From: Eledone cirrhosa
Lineage: Eukaryota
Reading direction: 5' to 3'
NCBI GenBank assembly: GCA_964016885.1
Contig: OZ024761.1
Coordinates: 5,766,001 to 5,830,000, forward strand
DNA: 64,000 nucleotides
Below the pieces are notes generated by a model. That model did not search any database, was not told the DNA's origin, and saw nothing but the letters and a program-made list of their open reading frames with translations. The first letter of the stretch is position 1; every line of letters starts with the position of its first letter. Below, in pieces: positions 409 through 40,456 of this stretch. The position numbers and the translations under genes are program-made.

Positions 409-457
<49 letters not shown>

Positions 458-484
458 GGAAAAATTTATATAATAGTTATATAT

Positions 485-1055
485 AAGTTGTAATAAAATG
501 AAAACGAAATTTCATTTCTCACTCTTAGTACGGCACTTACTTAGATGTAAGTATGTATGTATACGTACATACATATATGTATACAGACGTACAGTAGCAT
601 GCATATATATATATATATATATATACATACAGGTACACATACATATATGCACGTATCAGTTTAGCGGACGCTTATTATAACGCCCGCTTTGTTCGTTTGT
701 AAACAAACTGAACAGCCTGAATTTATGCCGTACGGTGTTAAGGCAACCACGTCAGCTTTTTGTTCAACACTGACACAGGAACGATGTACTAGTTTCAAGC
801 TTGTTAGCTATCATCAGCACCGTTTACCCATCTGCCAGATGGTTGAACGTTCGAAAGTATATACTTTCCTTATGAAAATTAACGGCTGAGCAGCCTAATT
901 TGCATATCGAGTGAGTTAAGTCGGCCAGGCGTACCGAAAATGACAAGTTGTAATAAAATGAAAACGAAATTTCATTTCTCACTCTTAGTACGGCACTTAC
1001 TTAAATGTAAGTATGTATGTATACATACATATATGTATACAGACGTACAGTAGCA

Positions 1056-1060
<5 letters not shown>
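485..1060 (-). mobile_element. Non-coding HHR element, family HH-A (460-bp unit plus about 115-bp partial tandem)
   Basis: Sequence starting AAGTTGTAATAAAATGAAAACG occurs at 485 and 945 (offset 460). Flanked by (TA)n, carries an HHR, and has at least 7 related copies in the window. Confidence 0.8.
782..822 (-). ncRNA. Type I hammerhead ribozyme (minimal)
   Basis: Minus strand: CGGTG-CTGATGA-TAGCTAACAAGCTT-GAAAC-TA-GTA-CATCG. Stem I CGGTG/CATCG, palindromic stem III ACTAGT, GUA cleavage site. Confidence 0.8.
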
Positions 1061-3193: not shown

Positions 3194-3527
3194 TTCAGAA
3201 ATTGGACAACACAAAATATAACTACTCCATTACCAAAGGTTTCTGGATTACAGACGATAATAATAAACGTCTGGATCGGTCGTCAGATAGAGATGTTATA
3301 GATAAAAGATATGAAATGAAATTTGAAATCTGTTGAAAATTGGAAGTGAGGCTGGAAACATAACAGGAAATATACACAAGAAAAGAAAGGTAAGAAACAT
3401 AATATATAACAAATAAAAGTATATAGCAATATAGAAAAAGACATATGTGTACATACATATGCACACATACACACATTCAGTTAAAAGGAAAAAATATATA
3501 TATGTATATATACATACATGTATATAT

Positions 3528-3944: not shown

Positions 3945-4240
3945 TTATACTATTTATGGTTATGCAAATACAAAAACTTTTGTAGTTATATATATTTTTA
4001 TAAACCCTAAATAGTGGTAGGCAGTAATATACTACTACCTTATTACCAGTAAGTTAAATAGCTCAATGTAATAACATCAGATGATTTACAGAGCAGTTAT
4101 ATGAATTATAAGAATCAAAGAACTGTTCAAAACATTTTTCTCCTTACAACTGTTTCCTCCAAACCGAAGAATCCAAACCTCGGTTTGGAGGAAACAGTTG
4201 TAAGCATAAAAATGTTTTGAACAGTTCTTTGATTCTTATA
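3945..4240. mobile_element. Hairpin element (inverted pLTR pair about 4107-4240 plus tail)
   Basis: TATAAGAATCAAAGAAC...CCAAACCGA and TCGGTTTGG...GTTCTTTGATTCTTATA are inverted arms. Same family as 3060-3160 and 53375-53655. Confidence 0.7.
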
Positions 4241-4725
4241 TATATATATATATATATATATACATAAAATATATATAAAAATATGTGTTAGGTGATTCCG
4301 AAATAAAAGCAAAGGGAAAAAAACGAGTGTTCGATGTATAAAACAGAGCTGTAAAAATATTTTTTGTTGAAAGTATGTGATAAAGGCCTAAGGTGGTAAA
4401 ATAAGACAGAATGTTCAGGAAAAGATGAAGTCAAGTAGTGAATAATATGTAAAATAAGTATAAAATAAAGTAAAATAAAATAAGTGTTGAATATGTAAAG
4501 TAAGATAGATTGTTCAAGGTAAAAGTAGGGGAAAAGAAGAAATGAATAAAATAGGTGTAATATAAAATAAATGTTGAATGTGTGATAAAGGTCCAGAGTG
4601 TTTAAAGTAAGAGAAGGTGTTCAAGGTGTAATATATGATAAGTGTTGAATGTGTTGGAGGAGCGAGTGTTCAAGGTGGGTAAGTGTACAAAATGGTGTTT
4701 TGATACCGAGAAAGGGGGTGAGTTC

Positions 4726-5305
4726 TTATATGTGGGCAAATGTTAAATATCTCAAATTAGAGTTAAGACAAATGTTAGGAGATTTCAGATTCTGTAGAAT
4801 TCTATATTTTTCTGTTACGCACAAGGTACATCTTCCTGTGTCTTTAATATATTCTTTTGATTGGTCTAAAATAGACCAATCAATTTCATATGGAATACCA
4901 CGCTCTTTCATCTCCCACACTCTATTTTCCAGCGCCGTAGTTTTCTTTTATCCTGGTGTCGAAAGGAAGCGACGTATGCATAGTATCTTTTCTTAAAGGT
5001 ATCCTGGGTCATACCCACATAACGTACTCCGGTAGAAGGTTGTTTAGTGTGAATAGGTCTTATAATTGCCCCATATACAATGGATTTGATGTTGCATTTG
5101 CCTTGCAGAGGAAATTCACCTGGGTTTTTGCATGAACATCCTGGGATTCTTCTGTCAGTTTTTACGGTGGTGATTTTCGATTTTATGGAAGGAATGCAAG
5201 AATAGCTAATCTTGACACAGTTTCTGTTAAAAATTGTGTTATATTTATGGTGATGGGGGAAATGTTTATCTACTAATTCAAGGAATTTTCTACCTACATT
5301 AGTTT
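4726..5305 (-). pseudogene. PLE GIY-YIG endonuclease region, Naiad-like, frameshifted near 4920
   Basis: KTNVGRKFLELVDKHFP...IFNRNCVKISYSC...CSC..PLQGKC..KSIVY...YVGMTQDTFKKRY, then WEMKE..IDWSIL...RCTLCVTEK in another frame. Confidence 0.8.
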
Positions 5306-5455
5306 TGAGTGCTATAACAAGTCCTTCGAGCTTTTGATTCCAGAGTCGGGCCAGATCAATACAGATCAAACTTTCAGCTGATCAATAGCGAAACGCGCGG
5401 CACACCTCAATAGACGTAATGAAGATCTAATACTTCGTCCTTTTTATTATTATTA

Positions 5456-5494: not shown

Positions 5495-5546
5495 GATATA
5501 TATATATTTCGTTTCTGAATTTGTCAACATGATCCTCCCATAGTAT

Positions 5547-5591
<45 letters not shown>

Positions 5592-5648
5592 GAACTCATT
5601 ACATTAAGTTCACATGTAGATATGTCACTATCTTTAAACCAATTATTG

Positions 5649-5709
5649 TATTTTATCTGACGATAGCGTACCACAGTACTGGTACCCTTGAAATATGTAT
5701 AATAAAATA
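5649..5709 (+). ncRNA. Type I hammerhead ribozyme (pLTR type)
   Basis: TATTTTAT-CTGACGA-..GTACC..GGTAC..-GAAAT-ATGT-ATA-ATAAAATA, with 8-bp stem I. Confidence 0.75.
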
Positions 5710-6170
5710 AATATGGTTTTATAAAGATATTTTCCATTTATTAACATTATTGACACACGCGCACGCATACACGCGCGCTTCTCTCTACAGATAATTGTTT
5801 CTACTTTTTTTACAGCCATTAACACAGATGTATACACACACATACATAGAAACAAAAAAATATCACCTCTAAACAACCACGTGTAGACACACTCATTCTT
5901 CATACACATAATAATACACACACACACACGCGCAACTAAAAGCTCGCAGACATACACACACATACCAGTGCACACACTTCACTTGATAAGATTCTGGGAT
6001 ACCCACGTAACCACACACACATAAACGGAAGCCGTGTACATCTACCAATTCTTCGCTTCCACACACACACAACCACATCCATGTCACTCCCACATACCCT
6101 TCACCCTGGGCCCCCAAGCCAGACCTTTCACACCCCCATATCACTTATTTTAAATACTGTTCTCTCCTTA

Positions 6171-6204: not shown

Positions 6205-6486
6205 GCTTCCTCCACTTCTGTGTAACTGTGTACAATTGCCTCCTGTCTTTTGTTTCATTTGTTAACTCTCTCTATATATATATCTGTGTGTGTGTGTGTG
6301 TCTATATTTGGGTATGACTGTCCATCGGTGTGTATGTGATGTTTCTATTGTGTTTACGTATGTGTGTGTGTGTGTGTGTGTAAATCCATGTGTGTGTGTA
6401 ATTCCATGTGTGTGTCGGAAGATTTTGTGTGTATGTATGTTTGTATCCACGTGAGTGTTGTGGTCAGAAGCGAAATATATGTACGT

Positions 6487-9400
6487 GTGTGTGTGATGTT
6501 GGCGTGTCCGGGTGTGTGTGAGGGTGGATGTGTTGATGTGTCCGGGTATGTTTCCAGGTGAGTGTGAGTGTGTGTGTGTGATGTTGGCGTGTCCGGGTGT
6601 GTGTGAGGGTGGATGTGTTGATGTGTCCGGGTATGTTTCCAGGTGAGTGTGAGGGTGTGTGTGTGTGTGTTGGTGTGTCTGGGTGTGTGTGAGGGTGGAT
6701 GTGTTGATGTGTCCGGGTATGTGTCCAGGTGAGTGTGAGTGTGTGTGTGTGATGTTGGCGTGTCCGGGTGTGTGTGAGGGTGGATGTGTTGATGTGTCCG
6801 GGTATGTGTCCAGGTGAGTGTGAGGGTGTGTGTGTGTGTGTTGGTGTGTCTGGGTGTGTGTGAGGGTGGATGTGTTGATGTGTCCGGGTATGTGTCCAGG
6901 TGAGTCTGAGTGTGTGTGTGTGATGTTGGCGTGTCCGGGTGTGTGTGAGGGTGGATGTGTTGATGTGTCCGGGTATGTGTCCAGGTGAGTGTGAGGGTGT
7001 GTGTGTGTGTGTTGGTGTGTCTGGGTGTGTGTGAGGGTGGATGTGTTGATGTGTCCGGGTATGTGTCCAGGTGAGTGTGAGTGTGTGTGTGTGATGTTGG
7101 CGTGTCCGGGTGTGTGTGAGGGTGGATGTGTTGATGTGTCCGGGTATGTGTCCAGGTGAGTGTGAGGGTGTGTGTGTGATGTTGGCGTGTCCGGGTGTGT
7201 GTGAGGGTGGATGTGTTGATGTGTCCGGGTATGTGTCCAGGTGAGTGTGAGTGTGTGTGTGTGATGTTGGCGTGTCCGGGTGTGTGTGAGGGTGGATGTG
7301 TTGATGTGTCCGGGTATGTGTCCAGGTGAGTGTGAGGGTGTGTGTGTGTGTTGGCGTGTCCGGGTGTGTGTGAGGGTGGATGTGTTGATGTGTCCGGGTA
7401 TGTGTCCAGGTGAGTGTGAGGGTGTGTGTGTGTGTGTTGGTGTGTCTGGGTGTGTGTGAGGGTGGATGTGTTGATGTGTCCGGGTATGTGTCCAGGTGAG
7501 TGTGAGGGTGTGTGTGTGTGTTGGCGTGTCCGGGTGTGTGTGAGGGTGGATGTGTTGATGTGTCCGGGTATGTGTCCAGGTGAGTGTGAGGGTGTGTGTG
7601 TGATGTTGGCGTGTCCGGGTGTGTGTGAGGGTGGATGTGTTGATGTGTCCGGGTATGTGTCCAGGTGAGTGTGAGTGTGTGTGTGTGATGTTGGCGTGTC
7701 CGGGTGTGTGTGAGGGTGGATGTGTTGATGTGTCCGGGTATGTGTCCAGGTGAGTGTGAGGGTGTGTGTGTGTGTTGGCGTGTCCGGGTGTGTGTGAGGG
7801 TGGATGTGTTGATGTGTCCGGGTATGTGTCCAGGTGAGTGTGAGGGTGTGTGTGTGTGTGTTGGTGTGTCTGGGTGTGTGTGAGGGTGGATGTGTTGATG
7901 TGTCCGGGTATGTGTCCAGGTGAGTGTGAGTGTGTGTGTGTGATGTTGGCGTGTCCGGGTGTGTGTGAGGGTGGATGTGTTGATGTGTCCGGGTATGTGT
8001 CCAGGTGAGTGTGAGGGTGTGTGTGTGATGTTGGCGTGTCCGGGTGTGTGTGAGGGTGGATGTGTTGATGTGTCCGGGTATGTGTCCAGGTGAGTGTGAG
8101 TGTGTGTGTGTGATGTTGGCGTGTCCGGGTGTGTGTGAGGGTGGATGTGTTGATGTGTCCGGGTATGTGTCCAGGTGAGTGTGAGGGTGTGTGTGTGTGT
8201 TGGCGTGTCCGGGTGTGTGTGAGGGTGGATGTGTTGATGTGTCCGGGTATGTGTCCAGGTGAGTGTGAGGGTGTGTGTGTGTGTGTTGGTGTGTCTGGGT
8301 GTGTGTGAGGGTGGATGTGTTGATGTGTCCGGGTATGTGTCCAGGTGAGTGTGAGGGTGTGTGTGTGTGTGTTGGTGTGTCTGGGTGTGTGTGAGGGTGG
8401 ATGTGTTGATGTGTCCGGGTATGTGTCCAGGTGAGTGTGAGGGTGTGTGTGTGTGTTGGCGTGTCCGGGTGTGTGTGAGGGTGGATGTGTTGATGTGTCC
8501 GGGTATGTGTCCAGGTGAGTGTGAGGGTGTGTGTGTGTGTTGGCGTGTCCGGGTGTGTGTGAGGGTGGATGTGTTGATGTGTCCGGGTATGTGTCCAGGT
8601 GAGTGTGAGGGTGTGTGTGTGTGTGTTGGCGTGTCTGGGTGTGTGTGAGGGTGGATGTGTTGATGTGTCCGGGTATGTGTCCAGGTGAGTGTGAGGGTGT
8701 GTGTGTGTGTGTTGGTGTGTCTGGGTGTGTGTGAGGGTGGATGTGTTGATGTGTCCGGGTATGTGTCCAGGTGAGTGTGAGGGTGTGTGTGTGTGTGTTG
8801 GCGTGTCCGGGTGTGTGTGAGGGTGGATGTGTTGATGTGTCCGGGTATGTGTCCAGGTGAGTGTGAGGGTGTGTGTGTGATGTTGGCGTGTCCGGGTGTG
8901 TGTGAGGGTGGATGTGTTGATGTGTCCGGGTATGTGTCCAGGTGAGTGTGAGGGTGTGTGTGTGATGTTGGCGTGTCCGGGTGTGTGTGAGGGTGGATGT
9001 GTTGATGTGTCCGGGTATGTGTCCAGGTGAGTGTGAGGGTGTGTGTGTGATGTTGGCGTGTCCGGGTGTGTGTGAGGGTGGATGTGTTGATGTGTCCGGG
9101 TATGTGTCCAGGTGAGTGTGAGGGTGTGTGTGTGTGTTGGTGTGTCCGGGTGTGTGTGAGGGTGGATGTGTTGATGTGTCCGGGTATGTGTCCAGGTGAG
9201 TGTGAGTGTGTGTGTGTGATGTTGGCGTGTCCGGGTGTGTGTGAGGGTGGATGTGTTGATGTGTCCGGGTATGTGTCCAGGTGAGTGTGAGTGTGTGTGT
9301 GATGTTGGCGTGTCCGGGTGTGTGTGAGGGTGGATGTGTTGATGTGTCCGGGTATGTGTCCAGGTGAGTGTGAGGGTGTGTGTGATGTTGGCGTGTCCGG

Positions 9401-11470
9401 GTGTGTGTGAGGGTGGATGTGTTGATGTGTCCGGGTATGTGTCCAGGTGAGTGTGAGTGTGTGTGTGTGATGTTGGCGTGTCCGGGTGTGTGTGAGGGTG
9501 GATGTGTTGATGTGTCCGGGTATGTGTCCAGGTGAGTGTGAGGGTGTGTGTGTGATGTTGGCGTGTCCGGGTGTGTGTGAGGGTGGATGTGTTGATGTGT
9601 CCGGGTATGTGTCCAGGTGAGTGTGAGGGTGTGTGTGTGATGTTGGCGTGTCCGGGTGTGTGTGAGGGTGGATGTGTTGATGTGTCCGGGTATGTGTCCA
9701 GGTGAGTGTGAGGGTGTGTGTGTGATGTTGGCGTGTCCGGGTGTGTGTGAGGGTGGATGTGTTGATGTGTCCGGGTATGTGTCCAGGTGAGTGTGAGGGT
9801 GTGTGTGTGTGTTGGTGTGTCCGGGTGTGTGTGAGGGTGGATGTGTTGATGTGTCCGGGTATGTGTCCAGGTGAGTGTGAGTGTGTGTGTGTGATGTTGG
9901 CGTGTCCGGGTGTGTGTGAGGGTGGATGTGTTGATGTGTCCGGGTATGTGTCCAGGTGAGTGTGAGTGTGTGTGTGATGTTGGCGTGTCCGGGTGTGTGT
10001 GAGGGTGGATGTGTTGATGTGTCCGGGTATGTGTCCAGGTGAGTGTGAGGGTGTGTGTGATGTTGGCGTGTCCGGGTGTGTGTGAGGGTGGATGTGTTGA
10101 TGTGTCCGGGTATGTGTCCAGGTGAGTGTGAGTGTGTGTGTGTGATGTTGGCGTGTCCGGGTGTGTGTGAGGGTGGATGTGTTGATGTGTCCGGGTATGT
10201 GTCCAGGTGAGTGTGAGGGTGTGTGTGTGTGTTGGCGTGTCCGGGTGTGTGTGAGGGTGGATGTGTTGATGTGTCCGGGTATGTGTCCAGGTGAGTGTGA
10301 GGGTGTGTGTGTGTGTTGGTGTGTCTGGGTGTGTGTGAGGGTGGATGTGTTGATGTGTCCGGGTATGTGTCCAGGTGAGTGTGAGGGTGTGTGTGTGTGT
10401 TGGTGTGTCTGGGTGTGTGTGAGGGTGGATGTGTTGATGTGTCCGGGTATGTGTCCAGGTGAGTGTGAGTGTGTGTGTGTGTGTGTTGGCGTGTCCGGGT
10501 GTGTGTGAGGGTGGATGTGTTGATGTGTCCGGGTATGTGTCCAGGTGAGTGTGAGGGTGTGTGTGTGATGTTGGCGTGTCCGGGTGTGTGTGAGGGTGGA
10601 TGTGTTGATGTGTCCGGGTATGTGTCCAGGTGAGTGTGAGTGTGTGTGTGTGATGTTGGCGTGTCCGGGTGTGTGTGAGGGTGGATGTGTTGATGTGTCC
10701 GGGTATGTGTCCAGGTGAGTGTGAGGGTGTGTGTGTGTGTGTTGGTGTGTCTGGGTGTGTGTGAGGGTGGATGTGTTGATGTGTCCGGGTATGTGTCCAG
10801 GTGAGTGTGAGGGTGTGTGTGTGTGTGTTGGTGTGTCTGGGTGTGTGTGAGGGTGGATGTGTTGATGTGTCCGGGTATGTGTCCAGGTGAGTGTGAGGGT
10901 GTGTGTGTGTGTTGGCGTGTCCGGGTGTGTGTGAGGGTGGATGTGTTGATGTGTCCGGGTATGTGTCCAGGTGAGTGTGAGGGTGTGTGTGTGTGTTGGT
11001 GTGTCTGGGTGTGTGTGAGGGTGGATGTGTTGATGTGTCCGGGTATGTGTCCAGGTGAGTGTGAGGGTGTGTGTGTGTGTTGGCGTGTCCGGGTGTGTGT
11101 GAGGGTGGATGTGTTGATGTGTCCGGGTATGTGTCCAGGTGAGTGTGAGTGTGTGTGTGTGTGTTGGTGTGTCTGGGTGTGTGTGAGGGTGGATGTGTTG
11201 ATGTGTCCGGGTATGTGTCCAGGTGAGTGTGAGGGTGTGTGTGTGTGTTGGTGTGTCTGGGTGTGTGTGAGGGTGGATGTGTTGATGTGTCCGGGTATGT
11301 GTCCAGGTGAGTGTGAGGGTGTGTGTGTGTGTTGGTGTGTCCGGGTGTGTGTGAGGGTGGATGTGTTGATGTGTCCGGGTATGTGTCCAGGTGAGTGTGA
11401 GGGTGTGTGTGTGTGTTGGTGTGTCCGGGTGTGTGTGAGGGTGGATGCGTGTGTGGATGGTGTGTCCAGG
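6487..11470. repeat. About 85-bp GT-rich minisatellite, about 58 copies
   Basis: Unit ATGTTGGCGTGTCCGGGTGTGTGTGAGGGTGGATGTGTTGATGTGTCCGGGTATGTGTCCAGGTGAGTGTGAG(GT)n, with variable GT count. Confidence 0.97.
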
Positions 11471-11948
11471 TAGAATCCAGGAGAGTTTGGACGGCAGAAG
11501 TGGAGGAGAGGTGGTGGCGCACGCAGAACGGAAGTAAGTTGAGAAGGGACTCTGGTAGTAGGCTATGTGTGAAAGTGTGTTTAGTAGTAGGTGTGTGTAT
11601 GGAGGTGGGGAGCGAGTAGTGTGGGTGGTGGGTCAATTAGTGAGATAGAGGGGTTGAATGGAGGGTGTGGCAGGTGAACTGTTAGTGTGTGGGCGTCAGG
11701 ATGTGTGTGTATGTGAGTGTGTGTGTGTGTGGTGCTGTCGGTGTTGTTAGTATTGGTGGTGTTGGTTATATGTGCGGGTGGGCGGGGTAGTAGTGTTGTT
11801 GGCGGGAGTGGGTGGTGGTGGTCCGCTAGTGGATTCTGGTGTGGGGTAAGGGAGTGACGGGTGGAGCGTGTGGGGTGTGTGTGGGAGTTAAAGAAAGGAA
11901 AAAGGGTGGGGAGTTTACCGGTCCAGGTCTGGAGAAAGATAATCGTGC

Positions 11949-12791: not shown

Positions 12792-12990
12792 TATACATAT
12801 ATATATATATGTATATATATGTATATATATATATGTGTTGGTATACTTTGGGAGGGTCGTGTTGCCAATAAGAAACACTCGCACCAGATGCTTTCACTCC
12901 AATTTATTATAAATTAAATTTATAAATTTAAGAATTTATAAATTTCCGGTTGGTTGGTTGGTTCCACAACCGGACAGTTGTTCATATATT

Positions 12991-13033
12991 GTCAAAGTTC
13001 TTTCGTCACACATTCTATGACCTCTTCAGTGAC
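12991..13033 (-). ncRNA. pLTR hammerhead motif
   Basis: Minus strand: GTCA-CTGAAGA-GGTCA..TGAC-GAAAG-AA-CTT-TGAC. Confidence 0.6.
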
Positions 13034-13270
13034 TGAGGATTCTTTTCTTTGTTTTTGTGCCTCTCCTTTGTTCTGTCCTACGCCATCTTGTTTTTGTGTG
13101 TGTTGTGTGCTTAGTTTGCGCATGTGTTACATCCAGGTGTCTGTGTGTGTTTATATTTGTTTATTTATTTGTTTATTTACATTTTACTGATTGGTTGTTT
13201 GTTCTATGTGTGTGTGTTTTCATTTTGTCCTTAATTGTAAGTTGTGATGTTGCTGTTCCACTCATATTTT

Positions 13271-13897
13271 CTATTTAATTTTGGTTGGAGTTAGTTCATT
13301 TATGTTTATTGCCTCTGTGATTTGTCTAAACATTGCGTCTTTTCTGTGTGTAGATTCTATTTTTATTTCTATGTTCTCTAATTTACCCTTATGTTCTAGT
13401 TTAGCATGTTGGTGGAGTACAGATGATTCTTTTCTATCTTGAAGTTCTCGCCAGTGTTCATTTATCCGTTCTCCTATACTACGAGCTGTCTCACCTATGT
13501 ACACTATATTCTTATCTCTACATTGTCCTTCAGTACATCTTATGCTATATACTACATTTCTAGTTTTACAGTTAATATGGGGGCTTAGTTTACAGATTAT
13601 ACATTTCTTATCTATACAGGGAGGTCTTTGAAAAGGGTATGTATTGCTAATAAGTGTTTTCATGGAGGTACCTGGTCTTTCTACTATCTTAATATTAAGT
13701 TTATGTTTATCCAGGGTCCTTCTAAATGTGTAAGCTAATTCACCTCTAGGGGTTGTATTGATGAACATTACACTCTGGTATTTATTGCTATCATACCATG
13801 AGTTTATTCTATTAACCTTATTCCTAGTTCTTTCTATTCTATTCCAAAATTTGCTCCTATACAAGGGGCAGGTCCCATTTCTATCATTATTTACCAT
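13271..13897 (-). pseudogene. PLE thumb/linker plus GIY-YIG endonuclease fragment (Cys-rich linker)
   Basis: PCIDKKCIIC...CKTRNVVYSIRC....YIGETARSIGERINEH...HQHAKLEH...RQITEAINI. Confidence 0.88.
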
Positions 13898-13935
13898 TCA
13901 TAAAAACACTTATTAGCAATACATTATTTACCTCC

Positions 13936-13971: not shown

Positions 13972-15612
<1,641 letters not shown>

Positions 15613-19363: not shown

Positions 19364-19446
19364 ACTTCCCTGATGACGAAAGGCTTCTTCGTACGCTTCT
19401 TCGGAAAGTATGTTTATTCCCTTTCAGAAACTAATTAGTTGGGAGT
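19364..19446 (+). ncRNA. Type I hammerhead ribozyme
   Basis: ACTTCC-CTGATGA-CGAAAGG...CCTTTCA-GAAAC-TAATTA-GTT-GGGAGT, with palindromic stem III ACTAATTAGT. Confidence 0.7.
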
Positions 19447-20154: not shown

Positions 20155-20189
<35 letters not shown>

Positions 20190-20190
<1 letters not shown>

Positions 20191-20513
20191 ATGATATTAA
20201 TAAACGGAAACTATATTTATAAAACCATATTCTATTATATATATTTCAAGAGTACCAAAATCTTGGGTACGCACTCATCAGATAAAATACAAAATTTGCT
20301 TTATAAATAGTGACATACCCGATAAACCAGACCTTATCGGTTCAAGTTTCGTTTGGATATCCAAACAGAGCCTGAACTGTTATGGTCTGATTCCTGGGTA
20401 TGTCACTATTTATAAAACAAATTTTGTATTTTATCTGATGAGTGCGTACCAAAGGTTTTGGTACCCTTGAGATATATATAATAGAATAAATATGGTTTTA
20501 TAAATATAGTTTC

Positions 20514-20516
<3 letters not shown>
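20190..20516. mobile_element. Palindromic pLTR pair with an HHR in each arm
   Basis: Centre GTTTGGAT|ATCCAAAC at 20358/9. HHR on minus 20228-20289 is intact; HHR on plus 20427-20488 has GAGA instead of GAAA. Confidence 0.8.
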
Positions 20517-20540
<24 letters not shown>

Positions 20541-20546
<6 letters not shown>

Positions 20547-20996
20547 AGATCAAAAGATGGTTAAAAGAGTTCCAAGTATTTTATTATGCGCATTTCAAAA
20601 ACAAATATCATCATGGGATGATATCTGCGTTCTCATCAGATAAAATAGGGAGACATGATATGAAGCTTAAAAAACACTTGCGAGCAGTGAAGTGTTAAAT
20701 AAATATATCATGGTTGATTTAAAATTTCACTATATTAATTCAATATGTTGATTTAAAACTTCACTATTCACAAGTGTTTTTTAAGCTTCATACCATGTCT
20801 CCCTATTTTATCTGATGATAACGCAGATATCATCCCATGATGATATTTGTTTTTGAAATGCGCATAATAAAATACTTGGAACTCTTTTAACCATCTTTTG
20901 ATCTTATATTATTTATACTCCAGTCCTACAAACTGTAGCGTGCTAATTATCCGATATTTGCATTGCTTTATTGTACTACAATAAAACTCACCTCCT

Positions 20997-21043: not shown

Positions 21044-21385
21044 CGATATTAACAAATGGAAACTATATTTATAAAACCATATCTATTTCATTATACATAT
21101 TTATACATATACTATCCGGGAGCTTCCAACAGTAATGGTTGCATTCTTTAAGGGTATGTCAATATTTATTTATAAAACTGCTCTATATTATATTTTATCT
21201 GATGAAAGCACACCATAATTTAACTTGGTGTCCTTGAAATATGTATAATGAAATAAATATGGTTTTATAAATATAGTTTCCATTTGTTAATATCGTATTT
21301 TTACTCCAATTATTTGTTGAGTGCTTTATATCAGTTATAAAAATATTTGCTTGTTGTATCCTAACAATTTAAATAGAACTTCTAC
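21043..21385 (+). mobile_element. pLTR with HHR (21191-21255) and a short 5' inverted copy
   Basis: 21043-21101 is the reverse complement of 21238-21297. TATTTTAT-CTGATGA..CACC..GGTG..GAAAT-ATGT-ATA-ATGAAATA. Confidence 0.78.
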
Positions 21386-21397
21386 ATATATATATAT

Positions 21398-21629
21398 AAC
21401 GAAGGAAATATGGTACGGAACCAGATGGACCATAACGCACCAAAGTACTCAATACTTAGGGTAGTAGAGTGGGTAATAGGAACGAGTAGGTCCCCGACGG
21501 CTGAGCTCAAGCCGTTTCGACGGGTAATTCTGGACTAAAAAAACAAAACAAAGAAAAAAAAATTCTTTTTTAAAGTCCAGAATTAGCCGTCGAAACGGCT
21601 TGAGCTCAGCCGTCGGGATCCTACTCATT

Positions 21630-21633
<4 letters not shown>
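21398..21633 (-). mobile_element. Hairpin element with HHR 3' halves
   Basis: Inverted arms containing GAAACGGCT-TGAGCTC-AGCCGTC around an A-rich spacer. Confidence 0.7.
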
Positions 21634-21708
<75 letters not shown>

Positions 21709-22737: not shown

Positions 22738-22744
<7 letters not shown>

Positions 22745-23140
22745 GAGGTGTAACACACGAGTTGTGATATATTTGTAATAGGAAAAGGAAATGCTGACAA
22801 ATTTTTCCCAGTGAAAAATAGTTTAATTAGGAATAAGTACAAATTAGTAATAAGTATTGGTTAGTATTCAGTTTTAGTTTTAAGTTTTTACCGGTTGCGC
22901 ATTTCTAATGCTTTTCAAAAATAATTTTGAGATAGAGCGCTCGTGATGTTTGCTCTAATTAGATTAGAGCAAACATCACGAGCGCTCTATCTCAAAATTA
23001 TTTTTGAAATGCGCAACCGGTAAAAACTTAAAAATAAAACTGAATACTAACCAATACTTATTACTAATTTATACTTATTCCTAATTAAACTATTTTTCAC
23101 TGGGAAAAATTTGTCAGCATTTTCTTTTCCTTTTACTTAT
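22738..23140. repeat. Long palindromic element (about 170-bp arms, centre about 22961)
   Basis: GATAGAGCGCTCGTGATGTTTGCTCTAAT-TAG-ATTAGAGCAAACATCACGAGCGCTCTATC. Homologous to 63535-63967. Confidence 0.85.
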
Positions 23141-23227
23141 ATATATATATATAGGTAGGTCCCGGGTTGAGTCGGGGATAACCACAGTAAGTAAGGTACT
23201 CAATAGTCCTGTAGAAGCTCCTTCTAT

Positions 23228-23569: not shown

Positions 23570-24181
23570 GTTGTAGTTCCTGTCGGTTTATCTGTTTGTT
23601 TGTTCACGAACTCCTCCTATGGTTTTGGAGATAGATCCCCATAACCATATATATTCTGAAACTACATTGCCCAGGGTTCTTGGTTACGTATATTTCATTT
23701 TAATCAAAGGGTTCTCCGGGGGCACAAAACCACCTCTGAAAATCTTTTCCTTTCGATTTATATGAAATTTAAACCATAGGTAAATGACAAGATATGATGC
23801 CTATTCATAAAATTTCAGCAAATTTCAATAATATTAAGACACCCTAATGGGGGTGAGAATGTTGGCCAATAAATGGAACAAGATGTGTTGTAACAAGATT
23901 GCATGAGAACTTGATTGAAGCAACCGTTATATTCGGGGCTTACAAGGGTCAAGCTCTTCTCATTCCGAGGATTCCACCTATACCAAGTGATAGCGAGTTG
24001 CCTTTTACATTTAAGAGGCTGCAGTTCCCTGTGAGGCCATGCTTTGCCATGAGCATCAATAAGAGTCAAGGTCAAACTTTCAAAACTATTGGTATAGATC
24101 TGACAAACCCATGTTTCAGTCATGGCATGTTTTTACAAAAAGAATGTGTGAAACGCAGCAAGGCGCGGGTAATTCGGCTAG
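23556..24181 (+). mobile_element. Non-autonomous Helitron with a PIF1-type helicase C-terminal fragment
   Basis: LLIPRIPPIPSDSELPFTFKRLQFPVRPCFAMSINKSQGQT...CFSHG (about 23899-24130). 3' end GCAAGGCGCGGGTAATTCGG-CTAG followed by T. Confidence 0.88.
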
Positions 24182-24454
24182 TATATATATATATATATAT
24201 ATATAGGTACCTTTCGTTTTCATTCGCATTCTCTCACACACCACATACACTTACATCCACTCATGCATTATATATGTTAGACCACCATCAGTTCTGATGA
24301 ATGTTCTAGTTGTTCAGACAACGGAACAGCCTGGTCATGCAACTTGCATGTGGCTGAGTATTCCGTAACGTATTTATATCTCTCCTGAGATTCAACGTGA
24401 CGCCATATGTGACAAGACGTTTTGAATTACAACGCCCCGCTCCCAGCGTGAAAT

Positions 24455-25890: not shown

Positions 25891-26171
25891 TTCTTGTTGT
25901 TTAGTCCAGGTCACAACCACAAAGACGCTCCAGCCGTGACTATCCTATCGTTTTCTCGGACATAATGTATCTAGGACCACATTAGATAAATCGTGAGCTA
26001 AGATAATTTATATATAGACTAATGACGGCTAATTGTAATATCTATACATGATATGAAAGAGAGATATTTGTTGGTTTGTTGGTTCCGTCGCACTCACACA
26101 AGTGATACAAACATACAAATACACAGCTGTGACGAATCTTAGAACGCTGGACTTCTATAGTTTCTCACTAC

Positions 26172-27440
26172 CCCCTCCTTCCTCAGTCATCACATAGATG
26201 TCCCTTCCTTCCTCAGTCAACGTCATCATCCCTTCCTTCCTCAGTCGACGTCATCACCCCTTCCTTCCTCAGTCGACGTCATCACCCCTTCCTTCCACAG
26301 TCGACGTAATCACCCCTTCCTTCCACAGTCGACGTCATCACCCCTTCCTTCCTCAGTCGACGTCATCACCCCTTCCTTCCACAGTCGACGTCATCACCCC
26401 TTCCTTCCTCAGTCGACGTCATCACCCCTTCCTTCCACAGTCAACGTCATCACCCCTTCCTTCCTCAGTCGACGTCATCACCCCTTCCTTCCTCAGTCGA
26501 CGTCATCACCCCTTCCTTCCACAGTCGACGTCATCACCCCTTCCTTCCTCAGTCGACGTCATCACCCCTTCCTTCCACAGTCGACGTCATCACCGCTTCC
26601 TTCCTCAGTCGACGTAATCACCCCTTCCTTCCTCAGTCAACGTCATCACCCCTTCCTTCCTCAGTCGACGTCATCACCCCTTCCTTCCACAGTCGACGTC
26701 ATCACCGCTTCCTTCCTCAGTCGACGTAATCACCCCTTCCTTCCTCAGTCGACGTAATCACCCCTTCCTTCCTCAGTCGACGTCATCACCCCTTCCTTCC
26801 TCAGTCGACGTAATCACCCCTTCCTTCCTCAGTCGACGTAATCACCCCTTCTTTCCACAGTCGACGTCATCACCGCTTCCTTCCTCAGTCGACGTAATCA
26901 CCCCTTCCTTCCTCAGTCGACGTAATCACCCCTTCCTTCCTCAGTCGACGTCATCACCCCTTCCTTCCTCAGTCGACGTAATCACCCCTTCCTTCCTCAG
27001 TCGACGTAATCACCCCTTCCTTCCACAGTCGACGTCATCACCGCTTTCTTCCTCAGTCGACGTAATCTTCACTTCCTTCCTCAGTCGACGTAATCACCCC
27101 TTCCTTCCACAGTCGACGTCATCACCGCTTCCTTCCTCAGTCGACGTAATCACCCCTTCCTTCCTCAGTCGACGTAATCACCCCTTCCTTCCTCAGTCGA
27201 CGTAATCACCCCTTCCTTCCACAGTCGACGTCATCACCGCTTCCTTCCTCAGTCGACGTAATCACCCCTTCCTTCCTCAGTGCACGTGATCACCCCTTCC
27301 TTCCACAGTCGACGTAATCACCCCTTCCTTCCACAGTCGACGTCATCACCGCTTCCTTCCACAGTCGGCGTAATCACCCCTTCCTTCCACAGTCGACGTA
27401 ATCACCCCTTCCTTCCTCAGTCGGCGTAATCACCCCTTCT
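26172..27440. repeat. 28-bp minisatellite, about 45 copies
   Basis: Unit CAGTCGACGT(C/A)ATCACC(C/G)CTTCCTTCC(T/A). Confidence 0.97.
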
Positions 27441-27502
27441 CTCCTCTGTCATTTCTAGTGTGTGACGGACAAATCACACAGCTTTTATTATATTACTGAT
27501 AT

Positions 27503-27610
27503 AAATCCCGCCAAGGTTAACTTTGCCTTTCATCCTTACGGGGTCGATAAAATAAAGTACCAGTAATGTACTGGGTGATTGCTGGCCTTGTGCCAAACGT
27601 AGAAACAATT
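27503..27610 (+). mobile_element. SINE 3' fragment
   Basis: AAATCCCGCC..AACTTTGCCTTTCATCCTTACGGGGTCGATAAAATAAAGTACCAG..GGCCTTGTGCC. Confidence 0.8.
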
Positions 27611-28752: not shown

Positions 28753-28793
28753 CTTTTAGGCAGGCAGTAAGATTTCAAGTGCACATTATACAG

Positions 28794-30285
28794 AAGTTTC
28801 TATTAGTGTTTTTCAAACAAGCAAGTTTATAAGTTTATGGCCCTTGCCATTCTGAGTTCAAATCCCGCCGAGGTTAACTTTGCCTTTCATACTTACAGGG
28901 TCGATAGAATAAAGTACCAGTAATGCACTGGGGTAATTGCTGGCCTTGTGCCAAAAGTAGAAACAATCATACACAAGTTTCTATTAGGGTTTTTCAAACA
29001 AGCAAGTTTATAAGTTTATGGCCCTTGCCATTCTGAGTTCAAATCCCGCCGAGGTTAACTTTGCCTTTCATACTTACAGGGTCGATAGAATAAAGTACCA
29101 GTAATGCACTGGGGTAATTGCTGGCCTTGTGCCAAAAGTAGAAACAATCATACACAAGTTTCTATTAGGGTTTTTCAAACAAGCAAGTTTATAAGTTTAC
29201 AGCCCTTGCCATTCTGAGTTCAAATCCCGCCGAGGTTAACTTTGCCTTTCATACTTACAGGGTCGATAGAATAAAATACCAGTAATGCACTGGGGTAATT
29301 GCTGGCCTTGTGCCAAAAGTGGAAACAATCATACACAAGTTTCTATTAGGGTTTTTCAAACAAGCAAGTTTATAAGTTTATGGCCCTTGCCATTCTGAGT
29401 TCAAATCCCGCCGAGGTTAACTTTGCCTTTCATACTTACAGGGTCGATAGAATAAAGTACCAGTAATGCACTGGGGTAATTGCTGGCCTTGTGCCAAAAG
29501 TAGAAACAATCATACACAAGTTTCTATTAGGGTTTTTCAAACAAGCAAGTTTATAAGTTTACAGCCCTTGCCATTCTGAGTTCAAATCCCGCCGAGGTTA
29601 ACTTTGCCTTTCATACTTACAGGGTCGATAGAATAAAGTACCAGTAATGCACTGGGGTAATTGCTGGCCTTGTGCCAAAAGTGGAAACAATCATACACAA
29701 GTTTCTATTAGGGTTTTTCAAACAAGCAAGTTTATAAGTTTATGGCCCTTGCCATTCTGAGTTCAAATCCCGCCGAGGTTAACTTTGCCTTTCATACTTA
29801 CAGGGTCGATAGAATAAAGTACCAGTAATGCACTGGGGTAATTGCTGGCCTTGTGCCAAAAGTGGAAACAATCATACACAAGTTTCTATTAGGGTTTTTC
29901 AAACAAGCAAGTTTATAAGTTTATGGCCCTTGCCATTCTGAGTTCAAATCCCGCCGAGGTTAACTTTGCCTTTCATACTTACAGAGTCGATAGAATAAAG
30001 TACCAGTAATGCACTGGGGTAATTGCTGGCCTTGTGCCAAAAGTGGAAACAATCATACACAAGTTTCTATTAGGGTTTTTCAAACAAGCAAGTTTATAAG
30101 TTTATGGCCCTTGCCATTCTGAGTTCTAATCCCGCCGAGGTTAACTTTGCCTTTCATACTTACAGAGTCGATAGAATAAAGTACCAGTAATGCACTGGGG
30201 TAATTGCTGGCCTTGTGCCACAAGTAGAAACAATCATACACAAGTTTCTATTAGGGTTTTTCAAACAAGCAAGTTTATAAGTTTC
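28794..30285 (+). repeat. 181-bp tandem array (about 8.2 copies) of a SINE 3' part plus flank
   Basis: AGTTTC at 28795, 28976, 29157 and onward. Each unit has the B box GAGTTCAAATCCC and the SINE core. Confidence 0.95.
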
Positions 30286-31390: not shown

Positions 31391-31905
31391 ACACCGAGCA
31401 TTATAATAAATGTTCGGTGAATCCATACATACATATATATATATGTGTGCATGTATGTATATAGATATACATACTACTGTACGTCTGTATGCATATATGT
31501 ATGTACGTATACATACTTATATTTAAGTAACAGCCGTACTAAGAGTGAGAAATGAAATTTCGTTTCATTTTTTCCGTTTATCGTTTTCGGTGCGCCCGGC
31601 AGATTAACTCACTCGATATGCAAATTACGCTGCTCAGCCGTTAATATGCATAAGGAAAGTATATACTTTCAGACGTTCAATCATCTGGCAGGAAGGTATA
31701 CGTTGCTGACGATAGCTAATAAGCTTGAAACTAGTACAGCGTTCCTTTGACACTGTACGGCTTAATTCGAGATGTTTGTTTACAAACACACCGAGCATTA
31801 TAATAAATGTTCGGTGAATCCATACGTACATATATGTACATATACGTGCATGTATGTATATATATATACATAATACTGTACATCTGTATACTTATATGTA
31901 TATAC
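31391..31905 (+). mobile_element. HH-A element, permuted partial tandem (397-bp unit)
   Basis: ACACCGAGCATTATAAT at 31391 and 31788. Confidence 0.8.
31701..31741 (+). ncRNA. Type I hammerhead ribozyme (intact core)
   Basis: CGTTG-CTGACGA-TAGCTAATAAGCTT-GAAAC-TA-GTA-CAGCG. Confidence 0.8.
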
Positions 31906-34049: not shown

Positions 34050-35828
34050 AACAAATATAGTTATACTTGAGGAGGGTCATATTGTTGTAATATTGCCAGA
34101 ATTAATAACAGAACACACTCACTGTTTGGTTGGTTTTCGCTTCTGTATCTTTTATATCTCCATAGTTAATTCATTTGGCCATCAATATTTATCATTGACT
34201 GACCAGCGGTCAAAAATACAGATATAAATACATATATATAGTCTAACAGAGTTCTTTCGTTGCACATCTGCAACATCATCAGTGGTACTGTTATCATGTT
34301 TCCCCTGCTGTATTGTATGTATTGTAATGTGTACGCCATTCTTATTTTATCTATTTATTTATTCTCAACGCTCACATGATGATGTGGACCGACATCCTAA
34401 CGCCAAGCAGACGCACTGCCAACAACTTCCAGGCGTCTAACAATGACGTACCACCCTTGTATAGGCTCTGCAAAGACCATAAGACAGTCGACGGCCCGAC
34501 AACAGGACCACCAACAAGACCTGTATGCGGAGCCAATATTGCTAGCAACTACAGGATCTCCTACTTCCTCTCAATGGTTATACGCCCCATAATCAAGATG
34601 TCCCCAGATGTATGTGACTGTACAGAGGAGTTCCTCAGCAGAATCAATGAGTGCAACAAAAACAAAAACCTATCTAACTGCATAATAGGCAGTATGGACG
34701 TGGTATCACTGTACCCATCCATTAACATTGATTTTACTGTCGAAAAATGTGTGAAAATAATCAGGGAGAGCGAAGTGGAGTTCTGCGATGTCGACACGGA
34801 TGAACTGGGCCTCCTACTTAGACTTACTTATGACACCAACTACCTAGACAGCCATGACCTTAGCCGTTTCTGCCCCAGTAGACCCATAACAGGTAGAACC
34901 CCCATCATAACCTCAATGGCAAAAAAGACTTCCATGGGAAGGTGGATTGGGTGGACCTAAGCAATACGGACACACAAAAACAATGATCAGGTGAGAAAAA
35001 TTGTCGCGCATGCAATAGGGGCTAGTATTAAAACTACATTCAAATTCAACTGAGGGAGCAGCCATTGGCGTCAGCATAGTTGGTGATGTTGCCAACCTTT
35101 TTATGGTATGGTGGGGAAGGAGACTCAAAGATCTCCTTGAAGAGAGCTCCATAGACCTCATTATGTACTCCCGTTACGTAGACGATATTAATATAGTAAT
35201 AAGGACACCCCCCACAAGAGAGTACTAACGAACATGATTTAGAATATAGCACAATGGAAAGCATCCAGCAGATAGTTACCTCTATACACCAGAGTATCAC
35301 TGTAACTATTGACTACTCTTCCAAACACCCTAACAATAGACTACCTGTATTAAACACGGAACTCTGGATTAACACTACAGACGAGAGGGCCCAAATTCTC
35401 CACTCACACTACACTAAACCCATGGCCTCCAAATACCTCAAACTCAAAATAAACTAACATAGAATACAATAACCAATAACCACAGTCACCCAAACACGAA
35501 CACACACACCAAACACTATACACATACGCATGCGCAGAGAGGAAGACAAAAATAAATAAATAAAAATGGCGTAGACATACAATACAACAGGAGGAAACAA
35601 TAGTACCAACTGATGATGTTGCAGATGTGCAACGAAAGAACTTTGTTAGACTATATATATGTATTTATATCTGTATTTTTGACCGCTGGTCAGTCAATGA
35701 TAAATATTGATGGCCAAATGAATTAATTATGGAGATATAAAAGATACAGAAGCGAAAACCAACCAATGTGTTTTGTTATTATTTCTGGCAATATTACAAC
35801 AATATGACCCTCCCCAAGTATAACAATA
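34050..35828 (+). mobile_element. Penelope-like element with inverted pLTRs
   Basis: 34050-34355 is the reverse complement of about 35550-35828. HHRs at 34244-34287 (-) and 35604-35648 (+): CTGATGA-TGTTGCAGATGTGCAAC-GAAAGAACT. Confidence 0.85.
34376..35457 (+). pseudogene. PLE reverse transcriptase fragment (stops and frameshifts, no endonuclease)
   Basis: YRLCKDHK..PTRPVCG..SMDVVSLYPSI..GAAIG..VANLFM..YSRYVDDI..LPVLNTEL..HYTKP. Confidence 0.88.
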
Positions 35829-35922
35829 TATATATGTATATATGTATATATATATGTATATATGTATATATATATATGTATATTATGTATATTATGTATA
35901 TATATATATATATGTATATATG

Positions 35923-37228: not shown

Positions 37229-37234
<6 letters not shown>

Positions 37235-37730
37235 TTAAAACAATGAAATAAAAAATCAAGTCATTAGAAATATACTTCACTGCTTTACGATCGTTTCTTG
37301 TTGATGATAATACATCGTAACTATACTTCGTTATCGATCTATGTAAGGTTAGTTACAAAATATCAGATAAGGAGAATATATACTTACATGTATATCACCA
37401 GCTGTTGTCAAAAGATTGGTTTTGACAACAGCTGGTGATATACATGTAAGTAAATATTCTCATCTGATATTTTGTAACTAACCTTACATAGATCGATAAC
37501 GAAGTATAGTTACGATGTACTATCATTAACAAGAAACGATCGTAAAGCAGTGAAGTATATTTCTAATGACTTGATTTTTTATTTCATTGTTTTAACTTAT
37601 ATCATGACTCTGTTTTCCTTTTAATGTTTTATTGTTTTCCGGGATTTATTTTAACCTACAACATTTTCAACATATGGATTACATTGAGTTCTTCATGCAG
37701 ACTAGACCCCACAACTTACCGTGGATATCT
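37229..37730. mobile_element. Long hairpin element (about 185-bp arms, centre about 37416) plus tail
   Basis: CAGCTGTTGTCAAAA-GATTGG-TTTTGACAACAGCTG. Arms carry GAAACGATCGTA (HHR 3' half). Related to 52690-52895. Confidence 0.85.
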
Positions 37731-40227: not shown

Positions 40228-40443
40228 AGGGCGGTGGGTTGGCAGTATCGGTAGAGGGTCGGACGCCATGCTTTGACGCATAGAGTTACGGCCCTTTATG
40301 ATTTGAGTTCAAATCCCATCGAGGTTAACTTTGCCTTTCATCCTTACGGGGTCGATAAAATAAAGTACCAGTCACACACTGGGGTCGATTTAATCGACTT
40401 CCCCCTCCCCCAAAATTGTTGGCCTTGTGCCTATATAAGAAAC
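40228..40443 (+). mobile_element. Full-length tRNA-derived SINE with about 18-bp TSD
   Basis: A box TGGCAGTATCGG, B box GAGTTCAAATCCC, CATTGTTAATAAYTGTTT on both sides. Confidence 0.88.
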
Positions 40444-40456
40444 CATTGTTAATAAC

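Follow-up and report, generated by a model that had tools for sequence, protein, structure and literature searches.

Animal non-LTR retrozymes, the closest described systems, have small non-coding units of low G+C content, with one type I hammerhead ribozyme and strong predicted self-pairing; the available text of PMC7229834 gives units of 225–245 nt in coral, 350–390 nt in mussel and 331/353 nt in axolotl. A range of 51–972 bp is given for animals in the accessible part of Li, Clavereau and Pollet (2026, 10.64898/2026.07.22.740005), where a retrozyme counts as active if its units are arrayed in tandem and two or more complete hammerheads are present. Penelope-like elements (PLEs) have been proposed as the mobilisers of retrozymes from co-occurrence and similarity of their pseudo-LTRs (pLTRs); according to the same source, evidence on the life cycle is scarce. 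The idea of a circular template was already put forward in PMC4209133 and PMC7229834. EN+ PLEs (Neptune/Nematis-type, with a C-terminal GIY-YIG nuclease) are described as having 5' truncation, partial tandems, head-to-head copies, microsatellite targets, a hammerhead and a segment of 30–40 nt beside the internal priming site (PMC8557442, the source of the list of insertion marks used here, and PMC11167929). For PAc, one PLE studied in vitro, the available text of PMC11167929 reports that priming is internal and that uncleaved RNA is the dominant substrate. Non-autonomous members of the Chlamys PLEs, such as MRC1 of Chlamydomonas, are short and non-coding, with pLTRs and head-to-tail insertions; they resemble the 3' end of their partner and mostly have no hammerhead, as far as PMC8557442 reports. 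Plant LTR retrozymes are non-coding hammerhead retroelements with a proposed circular RNA; each of their LTRs contains a type III hammerhead, and they have PBS/PPT and 4-bp duplications (10.64898/2026.07.22.740005, PMC7229834, in the parts available).

HH-A is a dispersed, protein-free repeat with a unit of about 430–460 nt, and eight copies lie within the 64-kb stretch of DNA analysed here (the window). It belongs to a published kind of element, and we consider it likely that HH-A is a non-autonomous hammerhead retrozyme mobilised by a PLE reverse transcriptase (RT) with a GIY-YIG nuclease. HH-A has the small non-coding unit, low G+C content, predicted type I hammerhead and strong predicted self-pairing of animal retrozymes, and its helix III is palindromic and weak, as in HHR_Amex1 of axolotl (PMC7229834). 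In the window, unlike in the animal arrays, its copies are scattered and incomplete, and none has more than one hammerhead; the unit is slightly longer, and PLE-type insertion ends can be read in (TA)n. By the definition of Li et al. its copies in the window rank as monomer or partial derivatives. RNA, cleavage and circles have been demonstrated for animal retrozymes; for HH-A they are predicted. With EN+ PLEs, HH-A shares 5' truncation, partial tandems, microsatellite targets and a hammerhead, and its head-to-head copies and the tail-sized segment beside the putative priming site are possible further counterparts. However, the RT/GIY-YIG ORF of an autonomous PLE is absent from the HH-A unit, the hammerhead lies outside the terminal repeats of copies 1 and 4 although pLTRs typically hold it, and the window contains no tail-ended copy. 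HH-A resembles the Chlamys elements in being short and non-coding, with pLTRs and head-to-tail insertions, but has no similarity to a partner within the window. Like the plant LTR retrozymes it is a non-coding hammerhead element with a proposed circular RNA, and it differs from them in its type I hammerhead, which lies outside the repeats, and in its location in TA tracts.

All eight copies named in a preliminary description of this DNA were recovered, at about the coordinates given there, by a BLAST search with the unit as query (E-values 1e-135 to 3e-36), and profile searches of the 64-kb window yielded no ninth copy. Together they comprise 2,803 bases, or 4.4% of a window that has a G+C content of 35.5%, long TA tracts and decayed retrotransposon pieces, features that make it animal-like. 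The G+C content of the unit is 0.36–0.38, and the better-aligned pairs of copies are ~78–95% identical. Unit positions are numbered along the sense strand of copy 1, position 1 being window 944 and position 460 window 485; the starts of copies 6 and 8 were read by eye, the aligner having misplaced both. As the preliminary description had noticed, five of the eight copies share about the same 3' end: copies 1, 2, 5, 6 and 7 terminate within ~10 nt of one U-rich point, here called the fixed site, and then pass into (TA)n.

Copy 1, 485–1060, minus strand: unit ~316–460, then a full 460-nt unit (485–944); partial tandem; 5' end grades into (TA)n; stops at the fixed site.
Copy 2, 13972–14378, minus strand: unit ~38–460; damaged hammerhead at 14255–14295; 3' end at the fixed site.
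Copy 3, 14395–14720, plus strand: unit ~39–399; damaged hammerhead at 14479–14519.
Copy 4, 31393–31905, plus strand: unit 257–457, junction at 31579/31580, then 1 to ~390; intact hammerhead at 31701–31741.
Copy 5, 49694–49753, plus strand: final 60 nt of the unit, with 60-nt identity to copy 1; 3' end at the fixed site.
Copy 6, 51040–51310, plus strand: unit ~150–451; starts at most ~10 nt from the cleavage site, stops ~9 nt short of the fixed site; no catalytic core.
Copy 7, 52905–53161, plus strand: unit ~174–460; no hammerhead; 3' end at the fixed site.
Copy 8, 57977–58372, plus strand: unit ~277–457, junction at 58195/58196, then 1 to ~178; damaged hammerhead at 58317–58357.

As first described, three copies (1, 4 and 8) read through the unit junction, each joining unit end to unit start, and two of these (1 and 4) are longer than one unit. 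Copies 1 and 4 each exceed one period (460 and 397 nt, respectively) and close on themselves, with no ORF inside the closed unit, a point on which the first reading was also right: the longest ATG-started frames are 42 and 38 codons in sense and 66 and 71 codons in antisense. Both are partial tandems, the form that defines the pseudo-LTRs of PLEs. The unit length had been put at 400–460 nt, and the upper figure stands; the lower one does not, since the 397-nt period results from a 35-nt deletion private to copy 4. Contigs without this deletion have loose ends at 31756 in 80, 5 and 2 contigs of data sets X1, X4 and X6, respectively, among the loose ends listed. The unit also contains internal TA tracts.

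The ribozyme of copy 1 is located as follows:

782–822, minus strand: intact minimal type I hammerhead of copy 1, with a predicted cut between 787 and 786, after unit position 158, and a palindromic ACUAGU helix III.

The statement that each unit has one hammerhead proved too general. The core is found in five of the eight copies, intact in copies 1 and 4, damaged in copies 2 (CUGUCGA), 3 (a UUA cleavage triplet and a stem I mismatch) and 8 (CUUACGA and CUA), and absent from copies 5, 6 and 7; none of the eight HH-A copies in the window has a second hammerhead. Stem I does vary while staying paired, with the letters reported before: copy 1 has CGGTG/CATCG, and in copy 4, where it reads CGTTG/CAGCG, a G-U pair is replaced by U-G. 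At Rfam gathering scores there were 0 hits (Hammerhead_HH9 reached 18.5 bits of the 52 needed, E 0.11), and the ribozyme call therefore rests on directly read core letters and stems. Matches to Rfam microRNA families in HH-A were rejected as noise from TA hairpins. The helix III palindrome closes poorly alone and is predicted to self-pair at −6.8 kcal/mol; dimer-type hammerheads with such a helix III are described in the available text of PMC4209133 and PMC7229834. The minimum-energy fold of copy 4 does not contain its hammerhead. Monomer release could not proceed unaided from any of the eight copies as read here.

The remaining three copies end away from the fixed site, at unit positions ~399 (copy 3), 387–410 (copy 4) and 178 (copy 8), all in TA tracts, which may reflect later erosion of these tracts. 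Contigs of two organisms likewise pass into TA at the fixed site, 61 and 29 of them in X1 and a single one in X4, among the loose ends listed. The share of TA dinucleotides in the 20-nt flank is 0.68–1.0 at all eight 3' ends and at least 0.79 at six of the eight 5' ends, against a background of 11.8% of window 20-mers at 0.7 or more. Circular permutation had been proposed for these copies; many starts combined with one common end indicate instead 5' truncation, only copies 3, 4 and 8 ending elsewhere. The cleavage site is crossed in five of the eight copies. The start of copy 6 close to that site was dismissed as a signal, the chance expectation being ~30% by our own estimate. A segment of tail size lies just beyond the fixed site:

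908–944, minus strand: tail-sized segment of 37 nt, unit positions 1–37, beyond the fixed 3' site.

Its limits are the fixed site on one side and the starts of copies 2 and 3 on the other. None of the eight copies has its 3' end at the far end of this segment, and no such end occurs among the loose ends listed. Copies 2 and 3 both begin at unit position 38–39, just past a predicted junction helix (see below), and a match of ATAT to the target could equally explain these starts.

The window also contains PLE pieces and further hammerhead families:

12838–13935, minus strand: 3' half of a PLE, with a GIY-YIG frame at 13271–13897 (E 0.00018), a CxxC linker, a hammerhead at 13029 and an end in (TA)n.
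34055–35829: decayed PLE RT region (RT at 34328–35439, with stops and frameshifts) between inverted terminal repeats, one arm with a tail.
54577–54930 and 5500–5550: small two-armed insertions made of ends of the same PLE family; one arm stops at its fixed site, whereas its partner includes a tail of ~57 nt and stops where this ends.
20184–20520, 21045–21298 and 5621–5753: second short hammerhead family, head-to-head pairs in TA; near its 3' end it has an 11-nt pattern in common with HH-A.
20545–20917: third hammerhead family, inverted pair; its 3' end recurs joined to copy 8.

The PLE 3' half at 12838–13935 lies in one TA cluster with copies 2 and 3, and a hammerhead-like core is present in each inverted terminal repeat of 34055–35829 (34282, minus; 35610, plus). 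Both the RT and the EN pieces of the window match P0001, and the family is of the C-terminal GIY-YIG kind. This decayed family carries a hammerhead, is inserted in TA targets and has formed two-armed insertions, in which an arm may have the tail or lack it. HH-A bears the PLE footprint in its fixed 3' end, its partial tandems and its (TA)n targets, and its head-to-head pairs may belong to it too; this footprint is likewise seen in the window's decayed PLEs, and there is no sequence similarity between HH-A and the PLE fragments of the window. The two shorter hammerhead families listed above behave like the window's PLE family. An 11-nt pattern occurs eight times (0.44 expected), always at ends or junctions of HH-A, of the second hammerhead family or of a similar stub; it was picked post hoc and represents two families, and is a hint of shared machinery only. 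A stub like the 3' end of the second family is found at 452–480 (minus), directly beyond the 3' end of copy 1. Further isolated hammerhead-like cores were seen at 3286 (minus) and at 19370, 44652 and 48945 (plus). A broken frame at 4760–5381 (minus) has what we take to be a resemblance to a PLE endonuclease of another type, and Pfam gave no hit for it.

Circularised units gave folding z values of −8.8 and −5.4. The TA-free sense stretches of copies 1, 4 and 2 gave −5.3, −4.1 and −3.2, respectively, and the minimum among 15 control stretches was −3.1. Copies 1 and 4 fold more strongly in sense; in copy 2 the antisense (z −3.6) folds as well as the sense. The paired elements are as follows.

663–688, minus strand: hairpin of copy 1, with three compensatory pairs relative to copies 2, 3, 4, 6 and 7.
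909–915 with 978–984, minus strand: predicted junction helix of copy 1, pairing across the unit junction.
31543–31549 with 31608–31614, plus strand: predicted junction helix of copy 4.
58159–58165 with 58224–58230, plus strand: predicted junction helix of copy 8, with one compensatory pair.

Over two hairpins, 101 of 102 cells stay paired and four of 17 pairs are changed on both sides, a number reached in one of 500 shuffles (slid controls gave 0–1); all four compensatory pairs stem from copy 1, and the alignment tested had also served to derive the structure. In the predicted 7-bp junction helix, sequence 35 nt before the fixed end pairs with positions 30–36 of the next unit and would enclose the priming site and the 37-nt segment, in a 95-nt domain of copies 1, 4 and 8. 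Both partners of one pair are changed in copy 8, and the two variants account for similar portions of the summed depth in X1 (28% and 27%), a figure that does not stand for copy number. With its three sequences, the helix was not significant against shuffles (187 of 500), and the 95-nt domain folded alone gave z −1.1. In full-length copy 1 the pair probability of the junction helix is 0.17–0.19 against 0.72–0.74 for a crossing helix, whereas in copy 4 it is about 0.8 against 0.

HH-A is abundant in other data sets: 9,036 contigs of X1 aligned to it, as did 78,562 of the 12.5 million RAD reads of X21 (these counts are not copy numbers), and it also occurs in contigs of two further organisms (X4 and X6). 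In X1 the share of aligned contigs running on into unlike sequence was 0 (5,141 and 9,036 aligned; the contigs are short). Four X4 contigs (organism B) join the same hammerhead to different upstream sequence, with a loose end at 827, possibly marking a related family or a parent of HH-A. Summed contig depths were not treated as copy numbers. In X21, the positions of depth steps and read ends coincide with AATT sites (508, 720, 880 and 897–900); these signals thus reflect the RAD library and were set aside. Two putative RNA runs gave one TA-only contig (X19) and none (X20), and are uninformative either way. Pattern scans for HH-A gave no matches in contigs of metagenomes, viruses and prokaryotic genomes. 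The literature searched contains nothing on the HH-A family, the junction helix or mixed arms; an earlier listing in a repeat library or preprint supplement is possible.

The copies might instead be truncated ends (pLTRs) of a long coding PLE, the closed units being local internal-deletion derivatives with no small RNA involved. As far as PMC4209133 reports, most PLE hammerheads do sit in pLTRs, as single truncated motifs. Other hammerhead families in the window are ends of coding PLEs (12838–13935 and 34055–35829), and the X4 contigs with the loose end at 827 point the same way. However, in each of the three copies that span the junction the end of the unit leads into its start, the two longer of them form closed units without an ORF, no X1 contig, short as these are, leads into unlike sequence, and pairing is kept in hairpins across the unit. 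We therefore judge this origin unlikely.

Less probable still is a SINE-like, linear Pol III RNA that begins near position 38, ends at the U-run and gives tandems by template jumping. It would account for the fixed end within a T run and for the starts of copies 2 and 3 at 38–39, but no perfect A or B box is present (in each unit, a one-mismatch B box lies upstream of the three A-box hits with one mismatch), no tRNA was found in HH-A, and positions 1–37, outside such a transcript, are present in all three junctions and predicted to pair with the upstream unit. The hammerhead might also be a fossil in a DNA-level repeat, either MITE-like or left over from a satellite, that recombination has spread from one TA tract to another. 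Such an origin would suit the ~5–20% divergence of the copies, the damage to three of five cores and the TA tracts inside the unit. Against it stand the fixed 3' end with nested 5' truncations, copies in which no terminal inverted repeats were seen, and the folding of copies 1 and 4, which is stronger in sense than in antisense, and we regard it as very improbable.

Returning to a retrozyme mobilised by a PLE, three copies continue across the junction and five across the cleavage site; the likely template is therefore either closed circular RNA or a multimer that had stayed uncut. The preliminary proposal of a PLE RT acting on circular or multimeric RNA thus stands as to the PLE marks and the kind of template, and falls where it took the varied starts as evidence of a circle. 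We lean towards a circular RNA; an uncut multimer is a credible but less probable template, and tandems made by template jumping are improbable. A linear route is left open by the weakness of the dimer-type ribozyme and the dominance of uncleaved RNA for PAc. The two rounds of copy 4 differ in nine of 104 columns and have no private change in common. Those of copy 1 share two states that are absent from seven other segments and may be subfamily marks; copy 5 does not cover them. Comparison of rounds in copies 1 and 4 decides for neither circle nor multimer. Of the 75 private changes, 17 are A>G, 14 T>C and 13 G>A, and no RNA-editing signature was seen among them.

In the mechanism that we propose, a tandem or partial-tandem source locus would be transcribed, two hammerheads would pair through the palindromic helix III to release the monomer, and a host ligase would close it. 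A PLE protein would bind the structured domain spanning the unit junction and nick (TA)n DNA. Priming would be internal, at the U-rich site, aided by a 2-nt AT match, and the enzyme would copy back through the ribozyme site and sometimes beyond the junction, stopping at variable points.

HH-A occurs in two head-to-head pairs, candidate counterparts of the inverted, 5'-truncated copy that PLE insertions can have at their 5' end. Copies 2 and 3 are head-to-head, with 16 nt of TA between them, and differ in 29 of 323 columns, of which 18 have both states in other copies (none of the 18 depends only on a misaligned row). Copies 2 and 3 thus derive from different RNA lineages. The partner of copy 8 is from another family:

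57930–57979, minus strand: 3' end of another hammerhead family, matching 20855–20917, with its outer end in (TA)n.

This stub is joined head-to-head to copy 8 at the 5' end of the latter, with 3 nt of microhomology at the fusion point. Such mixed pairs could come from independent hits in one TA tract or from one enzyme dimer with two RNAs; PAc is a predicted dimer that extends both strands, according to the available text of PMC11167929. A speculative model, which we hold to be rather doubtful, joins these observations: the junction helix, possibly with the crossing helix as a pseudoknot, would be a docking domain that sets priming and stop of the telomerase-related PLE enzyme on an RNA circle, and the two arms of the mixed pairs at copies 2/3 and at copy 8 would stem from different small RNAs, both carried by one PLE dimer. 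The readable copy ends provide a priming site at nucleotide level and a 95-nt candidate recognition domain, both suited to the existing in vitro PLE assay, and the circle-template model is therefore testable. This is a modest step, made with eight ageing copies.

Other repeats were noticed in the window. Palindromic repeats of 150–500 nt, some multi-copy, are located at 22741–23144, 63541–63969, 37233–37597, 56340–56857, 4098–4250 and 21399–21634, and may be MITEs or two-armed PLE remnants. The frame at 23857–24297 (plus) presumably resembles the end of a PIF1-type helicase of Helitrons; Pfam at E 0.01 gave no hit for it. Long minisatellite arrays occupy 6262–11636, 26170–27450, 28785–30284, 40875–44405 and 61142–63138, and the long open frames within them are artefacts of repetition. 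A 181-nt minisatellite array holds a repeat that is also dispersed at 27503, 39533, 40228–40755 and 49110.
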